Source: Fistulifera solaris
Lineage: Eukaryota
Assembly: GCA_030295235.1 (NCBI GenBank)
Contig: AP026147.1
Coordinates: 496,001 to 560,000 of the forward strand
Direction: 5' to 3'
Length of the DNA: 64,000 bases
Shown: positions 3,328 to 40,790 of the stretch, piece after piece
Numbering within the stretch: the stretch's first letter is position 1
Layout: each line of letters begins with the position of its first letter
Notes under the pieces: generated by a model
What the model was told of the DNA's origin: nothing
Databases searched by the model: none
Seen by the model: only the letters and a program-made list of their open reading frames with translations
Translations under genes and position numbers: made by a program

Positions 3328-6300
3328 ATGGTGATTCAGGAAGCTGAAATGATACGCCCCATCGCATCTGATGCTATTCATCGAATAGTAGCTGGGCAAG
3401 CTGTTACGGATCTTGCAAGCTGTGTGAAGGAACTGGTCGACAATGCATTAGATGCGGGAAGCAGAACCATTAACGGTGAGTGTTGCGAAGAATTTCGATG
3501 TCTCAGAATGGCTGATTTTCTAAACTCGAAACATCAACGTACTCATTCTTCTTCCTTTTCTTCGCTTTAGTGCGATTATTCAATCAAGGCGTGGATATCG
3601 TGGAAGTCAGCGACGATGGTTGTGGAGTTCCGAGGTGTTCGAGGCCTCTTTTGGCGCTACCGCACGCAACCAATAAAATTCAATCCATCGACGACCTTTA
3701 TCATCGCGCGACACCACTCACTCTGGGTTTTCGAGGAGAAGCTTTGTTTTGTCTCGCCAACCTGAGTGCCCGTTTAGTCATCGCCACACGAACCGCCGAC
3801 GAAGAACTGGCGCAAAAGATGGAGTTTGGTCGTGACGGAAGCCTGATTATGGATTCGGTCGTGGAGATGCCCCGCAAAGTGGGGACCACGGTGGCTGTAG
3901 TTAAACTCTTTGAGACGGTACCCGTACGGCAAGCTGATATGAAGCGTCAAATACAGAATCAGAGAAGTCGGATGATGAAAATGATGGAAGCGTACGCTAT
4001 TTTTTCGGTGGGAGTTTGTTTTAACGTCATGGATATTGCGACGGACGGAAATGGGAGAGAAAGCCGACTGTTGGCGACTACAATCAACAGCACTCGAATG
4101 GAAGAAACTATCACGGCAGTACTCGGCATTCGTTTCATGACGAAACTGAGTCCCATTGATATTGATATGAATTCAGTTTATGTGTCAGAGGTACCAACAT
4201 TAGATTCGGAAGCGCCACAGCCCAAATGGGGTGTGAAGGGATTTGTTTCAACGGCATCTCCAGCTGGAAGCAGTGATAGCAACCGCAGCGACCGCTGTGT
4301 CCAATATTACTGTATCAATGGACGGCCGGTCGAGTTACCGCAGATTACGCGATTGATCAACGACATCTGGCGAAATACCTTTGGTCAAAGCAAACGACCG
4401 TCTTGTATTCTAACGTTTACGCTACCTTGCCACTCCTTTGATGTGAATGTTTCACCCGACAAACGAGAAGTTATATTTCCGGCGGAACAGAAATTTTGTG
4501 AATTAGTGCAACAAAAAGTATCCGAGCTATGGGCGTCGCAGACACACGGAAAATTTACACAGCAAATCATCGATTCGTCATGTTCCAGAACCGATGCGGA
4601 GGAACAAATAGAAAAAAGACCCGATGAGATACTAGGATCACCAGGAAGATTCAAACGACGGCATGCATTTTCGCACGATTTCACGAAGGCCAAATTACAA
4701 CATGAATCGGAAGACCGTCGCCTGAGCCAAGAACTACATGCGAAGAGCCACGAGGTGGCCGCCCCGAATAACGATGAGGTCGATGATCAAGCGAACGCTG
4801 TTTCGGAATCTGCTGGCGAATCTGAATCGGATCAAAGTCATGACAGGCATCGTAAACGACAACGAGCAGCTGGTACTATGTTGGACGATACCACGCCATC
4901 AGAAAATATCAACAAGACCACTTCACTTACGAACTCTGCCGTGACTCCATCACCGGCGAGTCAAAGTTTACATAATGATAACGAAGAACACTCCGATTCA
5001 GTAAATGATGGGAGTAAGATGACCGCTGCGGAACAGGCCGGTTGGAGGCGGATACAAAGATCATTTAATTCTCAGTCAGGTGGTGATATGGAAGTCGATA
5101 TAGCTACTGCCACGAGGCGTCCTCGTCAAACGGCAGCAGTCGACTTCGATCAGAAACAAGGCAAATTGACAGAGTTCGGCTTTGAGAATCTTGGATACAA
5201 AGCAGTCAAACGGGTAAGCTTTGACCAGTTGCGGAGGACCCATGATGATGCAGCTACCGTTCAGCAAACAAGGAACACTTCTGTGGAAGCTACATCGCTT
5301 TACGGCACGCGCCGCGTGAGTGGCGAATCAACGGGATCGGTGCCTCAATTAACTCGAAATAATGAGCCACGCGATAATCTTAATTCGTCAGGTTCAAAAT
5401 GGACTTCGGTTGATATTAACTCGGAATCATCCAGCGCCGTTACTGGTTCTCAAAGCACGCTGGAGCAGTCGATTGACTGTGATTCGCAGGATGATTCTGA
5501 ATCAAATTCACCTGAAGTGATCTGGAAATCGTTTCAAAGTACGGAAGCTGTCATTGCTTCTTTCCAACAATATAACACGGTGGTAGAGGAACGGAGTAAG
5601 AGACTTCGAGAGACGATCCGTGGCATCGCACCTACAAGCACCGACAACGATAAGGAAAAGCCCCTTTCTGATGCGACAACCATTGGTCTTTCGAAGGAAG
5701 ATCTGGGAAAGAATATGACGATCATTGGGCAATTCAATATGGGTTTTATTCTCGCGCACACGCCTGATTATCATTTGTGGATCCTCGATCAGCACGCTTG
5801 CGACGAGAAATACAATTTTGAGCGTCTTTGCGTCGAAACCAAAATACACGAACAGCGTCTCATGGCACCGTTACCGATTGAACTGTCTCCTACAGAAGAG
5901 ACGTGTGTTATGGACAACATGGAAATTTTTGAGAAGAATGGATTCCGTTTTCAAATAGATGAGACCAAACCTCCCCGCCATCGCCTGGCTTTAACAGCCT
6001 TACCGCACAGTGGTGCCGCTGATGGGAGAAAGGCGGTCCAATTCGGAAAGGAAGATGTTGTTGCTTTGTGCGAGATATTGGGTGTCGACGATTCCTTGTC
6101 TTCGTATGACGCCCCGTCGGGTTGCGGCACCGGAGCCGACGGTTCGGGTATGTACGGCAACAACGCGGTCCGACGGTACACTCGTTCTGACGGCAACAAT
6201 TCGGCATCCCGTATCATTGCACGTCTTCCGAAAGCCATAGCCATGTTCGCTAGCCGAGCTTGCCGCGGAAGCATTATGGTTGGGCAAGCTCTCAATGAAA

Positions 6301-33999: not shown

Positions 34000-36562
34000 A
34001 TGATCTAATTGCTTCTTTATTCTGGTGCATCTCGTTTTCTACAATGCGGATGCTTTCACAACAATTCGCACTCCGAAAACGAGCACCATCTTGTTCGAAG
34101 GACGAAATTCCTTCCTTCCCGATCTTTCCGATCTCGCGAAACCGTTGGAAGGATTGTTCGGTCCCAGCCGTACCGAGGATTCCACGACTTTGTCACCCGT
34201 GACATTTACATCGACACCGGAAGGACTGGTACTGCAAGCCAAACGCGTTTTCAACTCGGATCTGGGTTTACTCGATCCCTCGTTATTGGATGACGAACGA
34301 TTTCAATGGGTGAGCCCGACCGTCGACAAGCCTCTCGATAAGACAGATTATCTCGCCGCGGGTCGTTTCTTTGATTTGCGTGCGGCTTTTCCGGATCTCA
34401 ATTACCGCGCGCACGATTTTCGCGTCGATGAGGATGATGCGACCGTTCGATGCACGTGTCGGATTACGGGGACGATGCGGGGTTCCTTGCGTCTGCGGGA
34501 CGTGATCTTGTCCCCGACCGGAAAAACCATGATCTGTCCGCCCGAAGGATTCAGTATGACATTCGATCTGGAGTCTGGAAAGCTCATTAAACTCTGCACC
34601 GGCTTTGCGATGGATCGTTTGGTCGGTAATACGCAAGGGACGACGGGGGTTGTGGCTGCAGCCATCACGGGAGGTCAACCAATCTCCGATTGGGATATTT
34701 ATCCACCGGCTACGGTTTTGAAACGCTTTTTCGGTAGACCTGTCAAGCCACTGCCGGAAGTATCCAACTTTTGGCTCCGTTCCCTGAAACGGTCATGATA
34801 CAGCTGGCGAAAGGCATCATCGGGTCGAATATGGCCTCCGTCGACCCTTCCTTGTTAGCACAAAGCTTCACTTACATGACGCCTTCACTTGGACCCATCG
34901 GAAAGAAGGAATTTCTTGAAAATTATGCAAAAGAAGAATTTCAAGATGTTGATCCTCGCATCAGTAACTATCGTGTCGATCCATATGACCCAGAACGTGT
35001 CTGGGTGGATCTGAAACCCGTCGGTGCCGGTTACCAGGGTGCACCACAGGCCATGTCCTTCACGTTCGACGGTGATGGATTTTGTACAAGAATCACCGCC
35101 GGAGCCGTCTTGGATCCGACCATCGGAAATGGTGGTGGGCTGGGAGGACCGGAAGGTTTGAAATATGCCCGAGGCCAAGCTTCTAATCCGTTAACAACTC
35201 GACCTCTTCCTCGACTTTTGGCCCGCATGAAAAATGATGCGCTTGCTCCCTTGTCGGGTGTTGCACAGAAAGCATCAACGGTCCAAGCTGTAGTCTCGAC
35301 ACCGAATATCCCCGAGCCGCCTCAAGCGAAACGTCCACCAGCTGTCCCGCAAGAGAAACAATTAACACCCTTGGAAAAGCTATCGGCGTCGGTGGGTGGG
35401 TCAATCAATCTATCCAATCTGATCAAAGAGGAGAAAGTAGCTTCTCCAGCGGTGAAGAGTTCTTCTCCGCCAGTGAGCAAGTCGGTAAAGCCAAAATCGC
35501 CTCCGTCGAGCAAGTCATTGCCCGTGACCAGACCGCCACCCCCAAAATCCACACCGCAAGCCGCACGTCCTACGCCACCTCCTCCACCCAAGGCTACCGC
35601 ATCATCGCTGACGTTGCCATTAGGAAGTATCAACATTCGCACACCTCCAACTCCATCCTCTCCGAGCAAAGTTGCTAGCTCAATCACAAAGAACGCGGCC
35701 GAGAAAGCAGCCCAGGCGAAACAGGGACAAAAACGAAAAGAGGCCGCCGAAGCTGCCAAAAAACAGATGATGGCCAAGGCTGCGGAACAAGCTGCTCGAA
35801 AGAAAGAAGAGGCACGAAAATCAGAGGCAGCCAGAATAGAAATGGAGCAAAAGAAAGAAGCAGCCAGAAGGGCGAGTGAAGCCAAAGCAAAGCAAGAACA
35901 AGCCAAACGAGATCAGGAAGCTGCACGACTGGCGGCGGAAACCAAGGCCAAGACAGAAGCGGCGAAACGAGCTATGGAACAGCAAAAGCAAGCGGAAGCG
36001 CTGCAGAAGAAAAAAAGCGGCAGCAGCAAAAGAAATGGAGCAAAAGCTTCGTAAAGAGGAGTCGCTGACATCTTTAAACAAAGCGACATCCAGAGCCACA
36101 ATCAGCCTCTTCGGGCGTCAGGAAACTTCCGCAATCGCCGCACCAAAACGTGACTCACAACCAAGTAGGAGTGTTCAAGTTGATCAACAACGTCGGGATG
36201 CCGAAAAGGACAAGAAGGAACGGGAGGAAGCGGCTTTGGCAACTCTTGCGAAAGCTGCGTCTAGAGCCACAATTAACTTGCTTGGATTAAAAAACCTGGA
36301 CAACGAACAGTCACTGCCAAAACAAAAGGGATTACCGGCTAAACCACCAAAGAGACCGCCCTCCGCGAGCAAGGCACCCGCAGGGGTACCAACGCTTTCG
36401 CGATGGCGTGAAAATGCCGATGGTTCCGTAACAGGTAACGTATCGGGGTCGAGAAACTTTACGGATGGAGAAAAGATTACAACCAGCAAAATTGCGAGAG
36501 GCAATTTCGCCTCGGGTGAAATTGTCGTGACAGGTAGTGGCTCCAAGTATTATCTAAATTAA
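34000..36562 (+). CDS. Putatively plastid-targeted multidomain protein: two SnoaL/NTF2-like domains, Pro-rich linker, coiled coil and small C-terminal domain
   Basis: ADA-FT presequence; repeated 'PSLL...F....P...P..K..YL...(F/Y)RVD' units. ORFs 34025, 34771 and 35876 join through homopolymer slips near 34769 and 36010. The start codon is unresolved. Confidence 0.6.
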
Positions 36563-36670: not shown

Positions 36671-39567
36671 CTAAGCCCGAACAAAAATGTCTTCCCAATC
36701 GTGAGCGTCTTTGCCATAGCCCCAAGTCATCACTTCATCCCAGTTCTCTACCTGTTGATATAGTGGAACTTGAGCCTGCTTCTTCAAGATAGTCTTTGCA
36801 ATGATTTGCTCAGCGAGGACATTTCCAACTACTCCAAGCCGCTCTTGAAGGCGTCCTATTGTTTTTATCTGCGCACCACGATTGCTAAGATCGCGTCCAT
36901 ATTCAACAACATCGACATCAATACCATTTGCAGCCAGACCGTCTCGAATACTCTCGTAGTACCGCCTTTTCTCGTCTATAAAAAGCTCCAACTCGAGTCT
37001 CTCTATGCGAATAGCATCTTTTTCGGTCGTATTTTCCAATAACCAGGCATTCTTTTGGACAGCAAGTTTGTAGGAGACAAAGGTTTCGATAATGCTACGT
37101 CTCCAGAGGATAATGGGGACGCTCTTTGCGCGTCCAAGACTCTTTATAAACTGGACTGGGCTCATAGACAGTTCGTCAAGATGCTCACGGAAAATTTTGA
37201 ACGCCACGACTGAATGTTCGGATGCCGATGGTATGCTACTTATGTACTTGATCCAGTCAGCTTGTCTCTTGTAGCGACTATTGAATACTTCCATAAGCTT
37301 TTGGTATGACAGTGACCAGGCGCTCCCACTTTCTCCTTTGAGGCGAGCAAAGAACCTCTGAGTGGTGCTGTAAGCCCATGTCTCGTCTCCACCGTCAATG
37401 TGCACTGGTAGGTTACATCCCTCATGCATTGCGTTTACACAGCGCCGAAGCAATCGTACCTGCTCGGCTTCATCATGAGTGTAAGGTTCCAGCATATTTC
37501 GAATATCTAATTGTTCTCCTGCACCATCCTGTAGCCCGTCGAGGATATTAAAGAACAGGTTCGATCCAGTACGTGGCTCTCCGAATACCACCAATAGTTC
37601 AGGTGATTTGACGGTTGCGTATGCGTGCGCGGGACACGCCCAAGGTGTCGAAGAATCCCGAAGGTCGGTGAGGCTTAGATGAGGAGTCGAGTTTTGTAGC
37701 CCGTCGCTCAATTGCTGTGGGAGGACAATTTAGTTGAGCACACGCTACGTTTTATAAAAATCGAAATTAAACTTACCGAATAGGTCATCACCATGAAGCA
37801 GTTCACGCCAACAATAAAGACAACACCAAAGGCACGCTGTTTTTGCTGGCTAAAAGACATGCACAACGTTTCGAGATGGTTGCAGTATTTGGTGATTAAG
37901 AAAGAGGAGTTCACCCAGTATAATCCGATGCAAATTATCATGTTCATCGCTCTGATGAAGATGTCAAACAGCCCGCAGCCATGAAGTCTTCCATCCAATG
38001 CGAACACGTATATAGTTTGATGAAAAGCCAAGCACAAACCAGCAAAAGCAGTTAAATCGTCGGTAGGACAAACTTTTATCTTTCGTGCGTTGGTTCTCTC
38101 GCAAATGTTGTTCTTCAGCCCCGCTTTAGGCGTCGTCAAGAATGTCGCATCATCAGAAAAGAAACCCTCCAAAACCGCCTTGACTTCGAATGCTGACATA
38201 CCGAAACGAAGTGCAAAGTATGGCAGAATGACGGTTAGGCGCAACAGACGTGACCACCAAAGGTTGTAATAGCCATTCTCGCCGGGGACCTTATTCGTAA
38301 GAGCGTGGAGCGCCGATGCAACAGGTTCAACAATAGCCGAAACGGAGACGGCCTTGACCATTAAAGAATCTATCTGATGGTAAACAAGATATGGATAGAC
38401 CATGAAAACCAATGCCGTCATAATCAATTGCAAAGGCCCACACAAATGCAAAAAGGCTTCCAGTTTGACCTGGAAAGGAGTATTCGGCGAGACCAAAACT
38501 TCCCCATAAAAGATCCACAGTACTTGAATAAACCCTTTTGTCCACCGCTGTTTTTGCTGAATGTGTGCTAGAAAATTCCCAGGTACTTCGAGCTGCTGAG
38601 GCGCAGTGCGAACGTAATGAAAATCGTATCCCGCGAGGTATGCCTTGTAAGAAAGAAGCAAATCTTCGGTGACCGTGTCCGAGCTGAAAAGACCGGCGGC
38701 TTGAATGGCCTCCTTTCTCCAAACTCCTCCAGTACCGTTAAAGCCAAATACGCCATGGGCACGATGGCGACCGACTTGCTCGACAACGTGATGAATATCC
38801 AATCCAAGAGCATCACACTCGGTCAGAAGGTTCTCGTGCGTATTGTAATAGCTCCAAGGGGTTTGAACGAGCCCGATATGATCGTTACTGACGCCGTTCG
38901 CGTCATAGAAATGCGGAACTGTTTTTCGAAGAAAGTCGGCGGTAATTTGATGATCGGCATCTAGATAAGCCACAAATTCGCCTTCAACAAAGGGAAAGTT
39001 GTGATTGAGATTGCCGGCCTTGTAACCAATGCGATTCGGTCGAGCGTGCCGCGAAACTGCAAAGCCCTTTTCTCTCCACCTGAGAACGCAATTCTCTATG
39101 ATGGTAATACTTTCCTTTTCGGTCGAGTCGTCACAGATTTGAACGCTTAATTTGTGTAGAGGCCAATCCAACTTACAGCAGCGCGAAATTGTTTCCTCCA
39201 CCACGTGTGCCTCATTGTAGGTGCATATTTGAACAGTGACATGAGGTTCCTTGCCCTGCAACAGATCTGGAGGACATGCATCGTCTGTAGATGGCTCGAA
39301 GTAGAAGCAGTAGATCGATACCAGCAAGTTCTTCCATCGAGAAAAGCTATAGAGCCATATCCCAGTTGATGCAGTGAAGAAGACGATCAGAAGAGGCAAA
39401 TGCCAGGGGTCGTTTTCGTGAAAAGGATGCAGCGAGATGAACATCGTTCCGCCCTCTTTTAAAATTGTATTTTGGTCTGAAGCCATTGGTTTCATTCGCC
39501 GACTAATCATTCTCATTTGTTGAGTTTGCGCAGTGATGTTGGTTAAATGGGTCGGAAAAGTGACCAT
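36671..39567 (-). CDS. Cellulose-synthase-like (CslA/CslC-type) GT2 glycosyltransferase fused to a C-terminal sulfotransferase
   Basis: GT2 motifs VTVQICTYNE, DDS, GYKAGNL, DAD, VQTPW, FNGTGGVWR, TED and QKQRW. A 62-nt intron 37776-37715 (GTAAGT...CCCACAG, phase 0) joins ...MTYS to QLSDG... The sulfotransferase part has the PAPS-binding motifs GEPRTGSN and WRRSIIETFVS. Confidence 0.82.
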
Positions 39568-40065
39568 CCGATCATTCCGATTGTTTTTGTGTTGTGTGCA
39601 TAAGATGGACGTGATGCGTGGCCTGTTAATTGTGAAACATATTTCTTAAGTGCAAGGGTCCCTCTCTTAGTCTTATTTCCTCTTTGATACGACAAAAGAA
39701 GGTCTGTCTTGACTATATCTCAGTCGATCTTAGCAAGCTCTTAGTACTGCAGTCCAGCTTTCGGTATGTCTCCCTTGTTAATATTTATAAAAAGTAAGAG
39801 CAGAAGAAGACGACGACAGCTCACTTCTCGCCCTCATCGTGTGTATACACACACGCTCTTTCGACCTTCGACTCCTCGTTTGTAACCCTTGAAAATCAAT
39901 CGAACGCGAGTACCAGTTTTGATCTATCATAAATACTTCGTAACTCGAAACGTAAAAATAGAATAAAACTTTTATTATAAAAAAAAAAAAAAGATGCAAC
40001 GCTTCAACAATGCCTGAGGAGTCCATTGCACTCCGTATAATCCTTGCGAAAATCTTATCCCTTAT

Positions 40066-40305
40066 CCAGAAAGTCTGGGTAGGTGCTGTTTTCACCTCTC
40101 CAGAAAATCTGGGCAAGTTGTGTATTCAAGTCTCCAGAAAAAATGGGAATGTGTTGTTTTCATTTGCCCAGAAAATCTGGGAATGTGGTGTTTTTCTCCA
40201 GAATATCTGGGAATGTGGTGTTTTGAAGTTTCCAGAAAATCTTGTAAGTTGTGATTTCACGTATCCAGAAAATCAGGGGAAGTGCTATTTCCGCGTGCCC
40301 AGAAT
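40066..40305. repeat. Degenerate ~33-bp tandem repeat with core CCAGAAAATCTGGG (8 copies; one further copy near 41058)
   Basis: Cores at ~40067, 40100, 40134, 40168, 40198, 40232, 40265 and 40299. Confidence 0.85.
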
Positions 40306-40421: not shown

Positions 40422-40790
40422 AACGTCCACAAAAGTCTCTGTCTAACCCAAACCAGCAATTCCAGAATTTCTGGAACGTCCACAAAATCTCTGGCCGACC
40501 CAAACCAGCAATTCCAGAATTTCTGGAACGTGAATGAATCTCTGTGTGACTCAAATCACTGATTCCAGAATTTCTGGAACGTCCACAAAATCTCTGGCTG
40601 ACCCAAACCAACAATTCCAGAATTTCTGGAACGTGAATGAATCTCTGTGTGACTCAAATCACTGATTCCAGAATTTCTGGAACGTCCACAAAATCTCTGG
40701 CTGACCCAAACCAACAATTCCAGAATTTCTGGAACGTGAATGAATCTCTGTGTGACTCAAATCACTGATTCCAGAATTTCTGGAACGTCC
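40422..40790. repeat. Tandem 51/52-bp (103-bp dimer) repeat with palindrome TTCCAGAATTTCTGGAA (7 copies)
   Basis: Palindromes at 40460, 40512, 40563, 40615, 40666, 40718 and 40769, with two alternating spacer types. Confidence 0.95.

Follow-up and report, generated by a model that had tools for sequence, protein, structure and literature searches.

A 64,000-nucleotide (nt) stretch of the genome of the raphid pennate diatom Fistulifera solaris (contig AP026147.1 of assembly GCA_030295235.1, positions 496,001 to 560,000 of the forward strand; hereafter the window, with positions counted from its first letter) carries on its minus strand, at 36671..39567, a two-exon gene that joins a predicted channel-forming synthase of glycosyltransferase family 2 (GT2) to a predicted sulfotransferase. 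On balance, we favor the reading that its product is a bifunctional synthase, which would polymerise a sugar chain from the cytosolic side, thread it through its own channel and sulfate it at the luminal exit. This reading builds on the gene structure, the two folds, the conserved catalytic and cofactor-binding motifs and a fusion that recurs in other lineages. The fused gene model is already public; the recognition of the synthase-sulfotransferase architecture is what is new.

Two overlapping reading frames form one spliced gene

The open reading frame (ORF) listing of the window contains the two minus-strand ORFs on which the original prediction was based: ORF A (39567..37708, 619 amino acids, ATG start) and ORF B (37711..36671, 346 amino acids), which is called from a TTG and overlaps ORF A by 4 nt. 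A donor GTAAGT at 37776-37771 and an acceptor CCCACAG with its final G at 37715 delimit a GT-AG intron of 62 nt (37715..37776), and the sequence around the junction reads ACC TAT TCG|GTAAGTTTAATT ... TCCTCCCACAG|CAA TTG AGC. Exon 1 (37777..39567), which encodes an N-terminal transmembrane segment, the GT2 catalytic domain and the transmembrane channel helices, stops at 37777 after exactly 597 codons and hence in phase 0. Exon 2 (36671..37714) opens at 37714 with CAA TTG AGC on a codon boundary of the ORF B frame and comprises 347 codons plus a TAG, encoding a linker with an NST sequon followed by the sulfotransferase domain. The spliced product counts 597 + 347 = 944 amino acids from the first ATG.

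The stop codon of frame A is the TGA at 37710-37708 and the nearest upstream stop of frame B is the TAA at 37732-37730; between these two stops lies a single acceptor AG, the one ending at 37715. Four donors are in frame with it, at 37776 (GTAAGT, the sole consensus site), 37743, 37791 and 37806. Use of 37743 would leave an intron of just 29 nt, and the sites at 37791 and 37806 are weak and of the GTGA type. The GTAAGT...CAG junction is one consensus solution and no chance pairing.

The public F. solaris gene model GAX22995.1 (FisN_15Hh108) has the identical junction, NCFMVMTYS|QLSDGLQNST, and its 917 amino acids are the same as our spliced product from Met28 onward. The canonical 62-nt intron and the phase-0 join that had been proposed from the letters alone are thus present in an existing gene model, whose product equals the proposed protein of about 944 amino acids from Met28 onward. 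GAX22995.1 is labelled as a hypothetical protein and UniRef100_A0A1Z5KA10 as "Glycosyltransferase 2-like domain-containing protein", so that its source names mention the GT2 part only and neither the C-terminal sulfotransferase nor the topology. The locus tags do not occur in the 11 supplements of PMC5935921 that were searched. Where translation begins is ambiguous: the first ATG of the ORF is at 39567, the public model begins at Met28 (39486), relatives align only from about residue 41 onward, and a further ATG, out of frame, is found 8 nt upstream of 39567.

Comparison with the homeolog is informative for the intron. There, the GT2 ORF (P0210) ends with LTYSVSLI, reading into the same GTAAGT-type donor, and the ORF of the C-terminal part (C part; P0213) runs upstream via VCSTNTLSPQ|QSSDE in the exon-2 frame; the similar stretch of the window, VCSTKLSSHSN followed by a stop, sits in the exon-1 frame. 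The frame-changing indel between the homeologs is confined to this stretch, which fits an unconstrained non-coding intron. ORF B itself is full length and stop-free, with 80 % conservation to the homeolog and 29-33 % to the fused relatives described below. It has no ATG ahead of the loop that would bind the sulfate donor 3'-phosphoadenosine 5'-phosphosulfate (PAPS), as its first Met is ORF B residue 73 and the loop occupies exon-2 residues 47-52, and therefore ORF B alone cannot yield a working enzyme.

The N-terminal part resembles channel-forming GT2 synthases

Pfam searches with the N-terminal part returned Glyco_trans_2_3 and three further GT2 families, with PF13632 (Glyco_trans_2_3) at E 1.4e-23 and 84.2 bits against a cut-off of 27, and PF13641 at E 4.3e-16. 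Together with a phmmer match to E. coli BcsA in the Protein Data Bank (PDB; 7lby_A, E 2e-21), whose alignment ends at residue 450, these matches define a GT-A catalytic region at 38512..39255 (residues about 105-352). Within the BcsA alignment, the motifs DDS, DAD, TED and QQKQRW (residues 338-342, at 38542-38556 inside the GT-A region) pair with ILDDG, FDCDH, TVTED and QRIRW. NCBIfam gave partial matches to CelA and PgaC, far under their equivalog cut-offs. With regard to the plant-type CslA/CslC label of the original prediction, BcsA, CelA and PgaC are the named matches of the GT2 part, the best of them of BcsA type; plant names occur in 0 of the 120 relatives examined, which are the best 120 listed among the 4007 proteins that the GT2-part query found at E<=0.001.

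A full-length AlphaFold2 (AF2) model of the relative P0007, which is 45 % identical in the GT2 part, reaches predicted local distance difference test (pLDDT) values mostly above 90 in its GT2 and transmembrane portions. This model superimposes on BcsA (9b8v_E) with Z 33.2 over 448 aligned residues at a root-mean-square deviation of 4.0, and on CesA8 (Z 25.8), hyaluronan synthases (Z about 25) and CslF6 (Z 20.2). The match of the channel helices was measured on P0007 and is carried over to the window protein through its hydrophobic segments, which lie in places matching those of P0007.

A motif scan placed FLTTPK at residues 476-481 (38125..38142), and the pattern FxxTPK is kept in all 13 proteins scanned, i.e., the window protein and 12 relatives. 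FLTTPK lies beyond the aligned range of BcsA and may correspond to the gating loop that processive GT2 synthases carry as an FxVTxK-type motif; in BcsA, the FxxTPK-type motif forms a cytosolic gating loop. Sequence matches and the model of the relative thus identify the N-terminal part as a predicted channel-forming, processive GT2 synthase of the type of BcsA, CesA and hyaluronan synthase. The earlier claim of a processive GT2 with the D, D, D, QxxRW signature agrees with the motifs aligned to BcsA and with the BcsA fold of the P0007 model, and the N-terminal transmembrane segment that it had placed ahead of the catalytic domain is found there in the exon 1 product.

The C-terminal part has a NodH/Stf0-type sulfotransferase fold

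The sulfotransferase domain spans 36674..37606 (exon-2 residues about 37-347), on the evidence of the AF2 model, structural alignments with VIA-align, profile comparison with hhalign and invariant residues. The AF2 model of the C part has a pLDDT of 89.7 and a predicted template modelling score of 0.88. In a Foldseek search with this model the top ten ranks were all sulfotransferases, with Stf0 as the best match (E 5e-5), and in VIA-align the best 50 PDB entries were sulfotransferases without exception (50/50; Z 10.6-12.2, 187-238 residues aligned). In line with this, the neighbours of the C part in the ESM Atlas are clusters of the Stf0/NodH type.

An exhaustive phmmer search of 1.84 billion proteins found 82 relatives of the C part, 28 of them at E<=1e-30 and 43 at E<=1e-10. 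Among the 45 relatives that were scanned, 14 pass a Pfam sulfotransferase cut-off; in one protein, P0147, the Pfam match and the match to our query occupy different parts of the chain. Profiles built from these relatives connect the C part to characterised enzymes in two steps. The close family (profile A4, 24 rows) aligns with a distant set (A5, 11 rows) in hhalign with a probability of 99.95 % and E 1e-37 over 241 columns, and A5 in turn finds the NodH lipopolysaccharide (LPS) sulfotransferase in the PDB at E 3e-25 as well as TPST, SULT2A1, CurM and Stf0 at <0.01. A mixed profile (A2) finds NodH at E 2e-10.

Both PAPS-binding motifs named in the original prediction, PRTGSN and R-x7-S, are in place. 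The 5'-phosphosulfate-binding (5'-PSB) loop PRTGSN lies at exon-2 residues 47-52 (37559-37576), and the 3'-phosphate-binding (3'-PB) segment WRRSIIETFVS, which includes 37073-37102, contains R206-x7-S214. Across ten aligned relatives, R48, G50 and S51 of the 5'-PSB loop and W204, R205, E210 and S214 of the 3'-PB segment are invariant (10/10 each). EPRTGSN aligns to SPRSGST of the CurM sulfotransferase and to ARSGSS of NodH, and WRRSIIETFVS to the matching segments of both enzymes. E76, likewise invariant in 10/10, aligns with the E of the NodH motif DEIF and is presumably the catalytic base, a role that we assume from work on Stf0 and CurM. Two cysteines also stand out: at least 90 % of rows keep C27, which makes it near-invariant, whereas C100 is present in every row of A4 and near-invariant in the second close-family profile, A1.

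Fold, profile chaining and invariant PAPS-loop residues thus identify the C part as a predicted NodH/Stf0-type sulfotransferase, and the identity proposed for this domain, which would have failed without such a fold, holds up on all three lines. Because the C part falls below the Pfam and NCBIfam cut-offs and is tied to known families only via profile chaining and relatives, we file it as a putative divergent relative of the Pfam sulfotransferase families, outside their membership as now defined.

The fusion recurs in other lineages

The original prediction had called for a search for the same architecture elsewhere, and it turned up in five further lineages. The C domain is present and colinear in four of the 120 listed GT2 relatives: P0007 (959 amino acids), P0008 (939), P0010 (922, from a Bacillariaceae metagenome-assembled genome) and P0011 (964). 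The C part matches these four at E 1e-37 to 2e-46 with 29-33 % identity in BLASTP, and at E 7e-72 to 3e-92 in a profile search. P0222 (915 amino acids) represents the fifth fused lineage. GAX22995.1 (P0209) and P0007 align end to end in a single high-scoring segment pair of 976 columns and 38 % identity that crosses the junction. A search for longer relatives of the C part yielded 2731 candidates, 0 of which were scored; this blank was deceptive, as fused proteins came to light with the GT2 part as query and in the exhaustive search. Extensions of an unrelated kind (IQ, GH7-like, DUF6492, or none recognised) are seen in other long GT2 relatives.

The sulfotransferase domain also occurs in other arrangements. 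P0126 (GAX14134.1), a paralog from F. solaris, has five tandem copies of it without a GT2 domain, and P0126, P0127, P0128 and P0130 share a layout of two to five tandem domains behind a single N-terminal hydrophobic segment, again with no GT2. A polyprotein-like sulfotransferase array of the P0126 type is unusual in its own right.

A scan of metagenome loci gave two hits, neither of which informs on the fusion. L001 is a 1-kb fragment. In L002, the match at positions 3911-4462 is limited to the C-terminal half of the domain (41 % identity over query residues 201-344), which adjoins a PhoD-like phosphatase gene on the opposite strand and overlaps it in part. The surroundings of L002 (RsmB-type methyltransferase, PhoD-like phosphatase, PhyH) are unrelated, and the half-domain could be a relic or one exon of a gene that is split.

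Predicted membrane topology places the sulfotransferase opposite the GT domain

Hydrophobic segments were counted from FxxTPK to the PAPS loop in five fused proteins, and each of the five has three. In three distant relatives without the fusion (P0042, P0047 and P0031), two segments follow the motif. In the window protein, the third segment past FxxTPK, AFGVVFIVGVNCFMVMTYS (residues 579-597, 37777..37833), stands directly before the sulfotransferase part; its counterpart in the AF2 model of P0007 is the last of three long helices (488-513, 521-551 and 571-592). If the putative cytosolic loop is followed by an odd number of membrane crossings, the C domain would come to lie on the side opposite the GT domain. 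The count of Lys plus Arg in the 15 residues ahead of the third segment is 2, 4, 4, 4 and 4 in the five fused proteins, and 0, 2, 1, 2 and 1 behind it. Moreover, the linkers of four of the five contain N-x-S/T sequons, and the conserved cysteines C27 and C100 are a further sign of such a placement.

Stand-alone relatives of the domain were compared with respect to their N-termini. We selected 15 proteins with a Met start and >=40 residues ahead of the domain, leaving out P0131 as a fragment of the fused P0222 cluster, and scored segments at a Kyte-Doolittle value of >=1.7. A single strongly hydrophobic 19-mer precedes the domain in 12 of the 15, the exceptions being P0128, P0141 and P0147, which gives these stand-alone relatives the predicted look of type-II or secreted proteins.

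Third helix, charge bias and the signal anchors of the stand-alone relatives point the same way, and the sulfotransferase is probably exoplasmic or luminal, as had been suggested from its position past the last transmembrane segment. PAPS is synthesised in the cytosol, from which it reaches the Golgi by import. A luminal domain supplied by this import would act in the Golgi or in secretory vesicles.

A proposed mechanism and its alternatives

We propose that one nuclear gene of F. solaris with two exons gives rise to a bifunctional membrane protein. In its N-terminal 570-600 residues, the cytosolic GT-A domain would elongate the polymer with units taken from a nucleotide sugar, and the nascent chain would be threaded through the synthase's own transmembrane channel. 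The extra third helix past the gating loop, a trait of the closest clade, would bring the polypeptide back across the membrane, so that the C-terminal PAPS-dependent domain of about 310 residues and NodH/Stf0 type would reside on the exoplasmic side, most likely in the lumen of the Golgi or of secretory vesicles. There it may O-sulfate the polymer as this leaves the channel, giving rise to a sulfated extracellular or wall polysaccharide. In this scheme we infer the topology, the compartment, the polymer as sulfate acceptor and the nature of the polymer. Only tentatively do we extend it to a self-contained "polymerise, translocate, sulfate" machine of raphid pennates, in which a single polypeptide would carry out co-translocational sulfation at the luminal channel exit.

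Several points weigh against this proposal. Enzymatic activity and the polymer as acceptor are predictions from sequence and models. Contigs of sequencing run X1, the only run that covers the locus, extend over both the intron and the intergenic stretches, as DNA reads would, and say nothing about expression; the contigs of runs X2 and X3 contain next to nothing at the locus. The homeolog is annotated unfused, as a GT2-only protein of 560 amino acids (GAX23390.1). On its own, the C part of the window has no match in Pfam, NCBIfam or PDB sequences; the best phmmer hit in the PDB, cathepsin S at E 0.58, is noise. The close-family profiles A1 and A4 reach the CurM sulfotransferase at just E 0.93 and 0.16, in alignments that fall exactly on both cofactor motifs, and since these matches are insignificant the sequence link of the C part to known families depends on intermediates. 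The TM-scores of the best Foldseek match stay modest, at 0.39 normalised to the query and 0.52 to the target, and after the first strand-loop-helix the domain carries a helical insert of ~70 residues that short relatives lack. Finally, the topology was derived from a crude Kyte-Doolittle scan and helix counting rather than a trained predictor, and the full-length P0007 model is of low confidence in the sulfotransferase part (pLDDT about 50-70) and the linker.

The fusion could be real with a sulfotransferase that acts elsewhere, either in the cytosol or in the lumen on a protein-linked glycan, a lipid or another polysaccharide, with the synthase as its anchor or scaffold. Stand-alone type-II-like proteins and the arrays of two to five domains without GT2 (P0126, P0127, P0128 and P0130) demonstrate that the domain needs no synthase, and both acceptor and topology are matters of inference. 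We nevertheless consider this unlikely, as the colinear fusion has been kept in six lineages over about 38-45 % sequence divergence, and a clade-specific extra helix right before the domain is hard to explain if its position relative to the channel exit is irrelevant.

It is less probable still that the C domain is an inactive sulfotransferase-like module which binds PAP, PAPS or a sulfated glycan and regulates or guides the synthase. In favor of such a module, the C part misses all curated family thresholds, contains its large insert and has an Arg that replaces the Lys of classical PKxGTT loops. Arg is, however, usual at this position in the CurM-, NodH- and olefin-synthase-type sulfotransferases to which the C part aligns, and the invariance of the 5'-PSB and 3'-PB residues and of the candidate base E76 in all ten relatives is the purifying-selection pattern of a working active site.

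That we are dealing with two genes or a prediction read-through, in which the intron is kept, the GT2 protein ends at the TGA at 37710-37708 and ORF B is untranslated or a pseudogene, is very improbable: the homeolog and several metagenome gene calls do give the two parts separately and a search for RNA reads at the locus found none, but the separate calls are ORF-based, with the GT2 calls P0001 and P0212 stopping inside the intron (VSLISIF..SN), ORF B is conserved over its full length despite having no ATG before the PAPS loop, and six lineages encode the fused form. The bifunctional synthase therefore remains our preferred reading.

Surroundings of the gene

Two tandem-repeat arrays lie right upstream of the synthase gene, at 40065-40284 and 40422-40790. 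One has a 34/98-nt period and about 6.6 copies, the other a 52/103-nt period with a 99 % match of its 103-nt unit. Within the first array, contigs from run X1 have 53 nt replaced or skipped at 40113-40167, indicating that the length of this array is polymorphic or homeolog-specific. Within the gene, at 38167-38371, the contigs of run X1 fall into two populations; the second, which differs by 11 clustered substitutions and has a depth of about 21-23 of 37-39, is probably homeolog or allele sequence of the allodiploid genome.

On the other side, a convergent neighbour on the plus strand (34771-36562) comes to within about 110 nt of the synthase stop codon. Two long ORFs make it up, 34771..36054 and 35876..36562, which overlap, are of low complexity and rich in K, A, E, P and S, and could belong to a single gene interrupted by an intron or a frameshift.

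Significance and comparison with known systems

Diatoms release much sulfated polysaccharide to the sea and use it in adhesion and gliding. Brown algae are stramenopiles, like diatoms. According to PMC7335047, the extracellular polymeric substances (EPS) that raphid benthic diatoms secrete include sulfated polysaccharides or proteoglycans, and PMC11468063 describes the brown-algal genes that make sulfated glycans as still unknown. Within the library searched, our literature searches did not find a description of a synthase-sulfotransferase fusion in diatoms. A single conserved gene with both predicted activities, in a transformable and sequenced species, provides a direct experimental handle. 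If the self-contained machine exists as sketched above, the protein would be the first synthase to be defined for sulfated polysaccharides of the diatom wall, EPS or adhesives, and would represent a new design principle for patterned sulfation. Its tethered topology would also offer a compact template for engineering sulfated glycans.

With BcsA, CesA, CslF6 and hyaluronan synthase, the F. solaris protein shares the GT-A domain with D, D, D and QxxRW and, as measured on P0007, the fold including the membrane helices. In contrast to BcsA-type synthases, it has a single helix at the N-terminus where these have four, lacks a PilZ domain, and adds a third helix past the putative gating loop and the C-terminal sulfotransferase.

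The C part shares the P-loop sulfotransferase fold with the NodH/LPS sulfotransferase (9vki), Stf0 (1tex), CurM (4gbm) and the olefin-synthase enzyme (4gox). It superimposes on 1tex, 4gox and 4gbm, which are among the VIA-align entries given, with Z 11.7-12.2, and has the PRxGS-type 5'-PSB loop and the R..S of the 3'-PB segment in common with them; the NodH structure 9vki is linked through the profile chain (E 3e-25). Unlike NodH, Stf0 and CurM, the window domain contains the ~70-residue helical insert and falls below the Pfam cut-offs. Moreover, these bacterial enzymes are soluble proteins or domains of polyketide synthases, whereas the window domain is probably luminal and tethered to a synthase.

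Polysaccharide activity and a sulfotransferase are found in one chain also in P0200 (GT2 plus sulfotransferase) and in a cluster of Chlorophyta proteins in the ESM Atlas (Gly_transf_sug plus sulfotransferase), and we take the heparan sulfate enzyme NDST to be a further bifunctional modifying enzyme with a sulfotransferase in one chain. The partner domains in P0200, the green-algal cluster and NDST are non-processive, soluble-type or type-II GT domains; none is a channel-forming synthase, and none of these proteins places its sulfotransferase at the far side of a synthase channel. Thus, fusions of non-processive glycosyltransferases with sulfotransferases are known from P0200 and the green-algal cluster, whereas the combination predicted here, a channel-forming synthase with an exoplasmic sulfotransferase, is new with respect to the literature searched.

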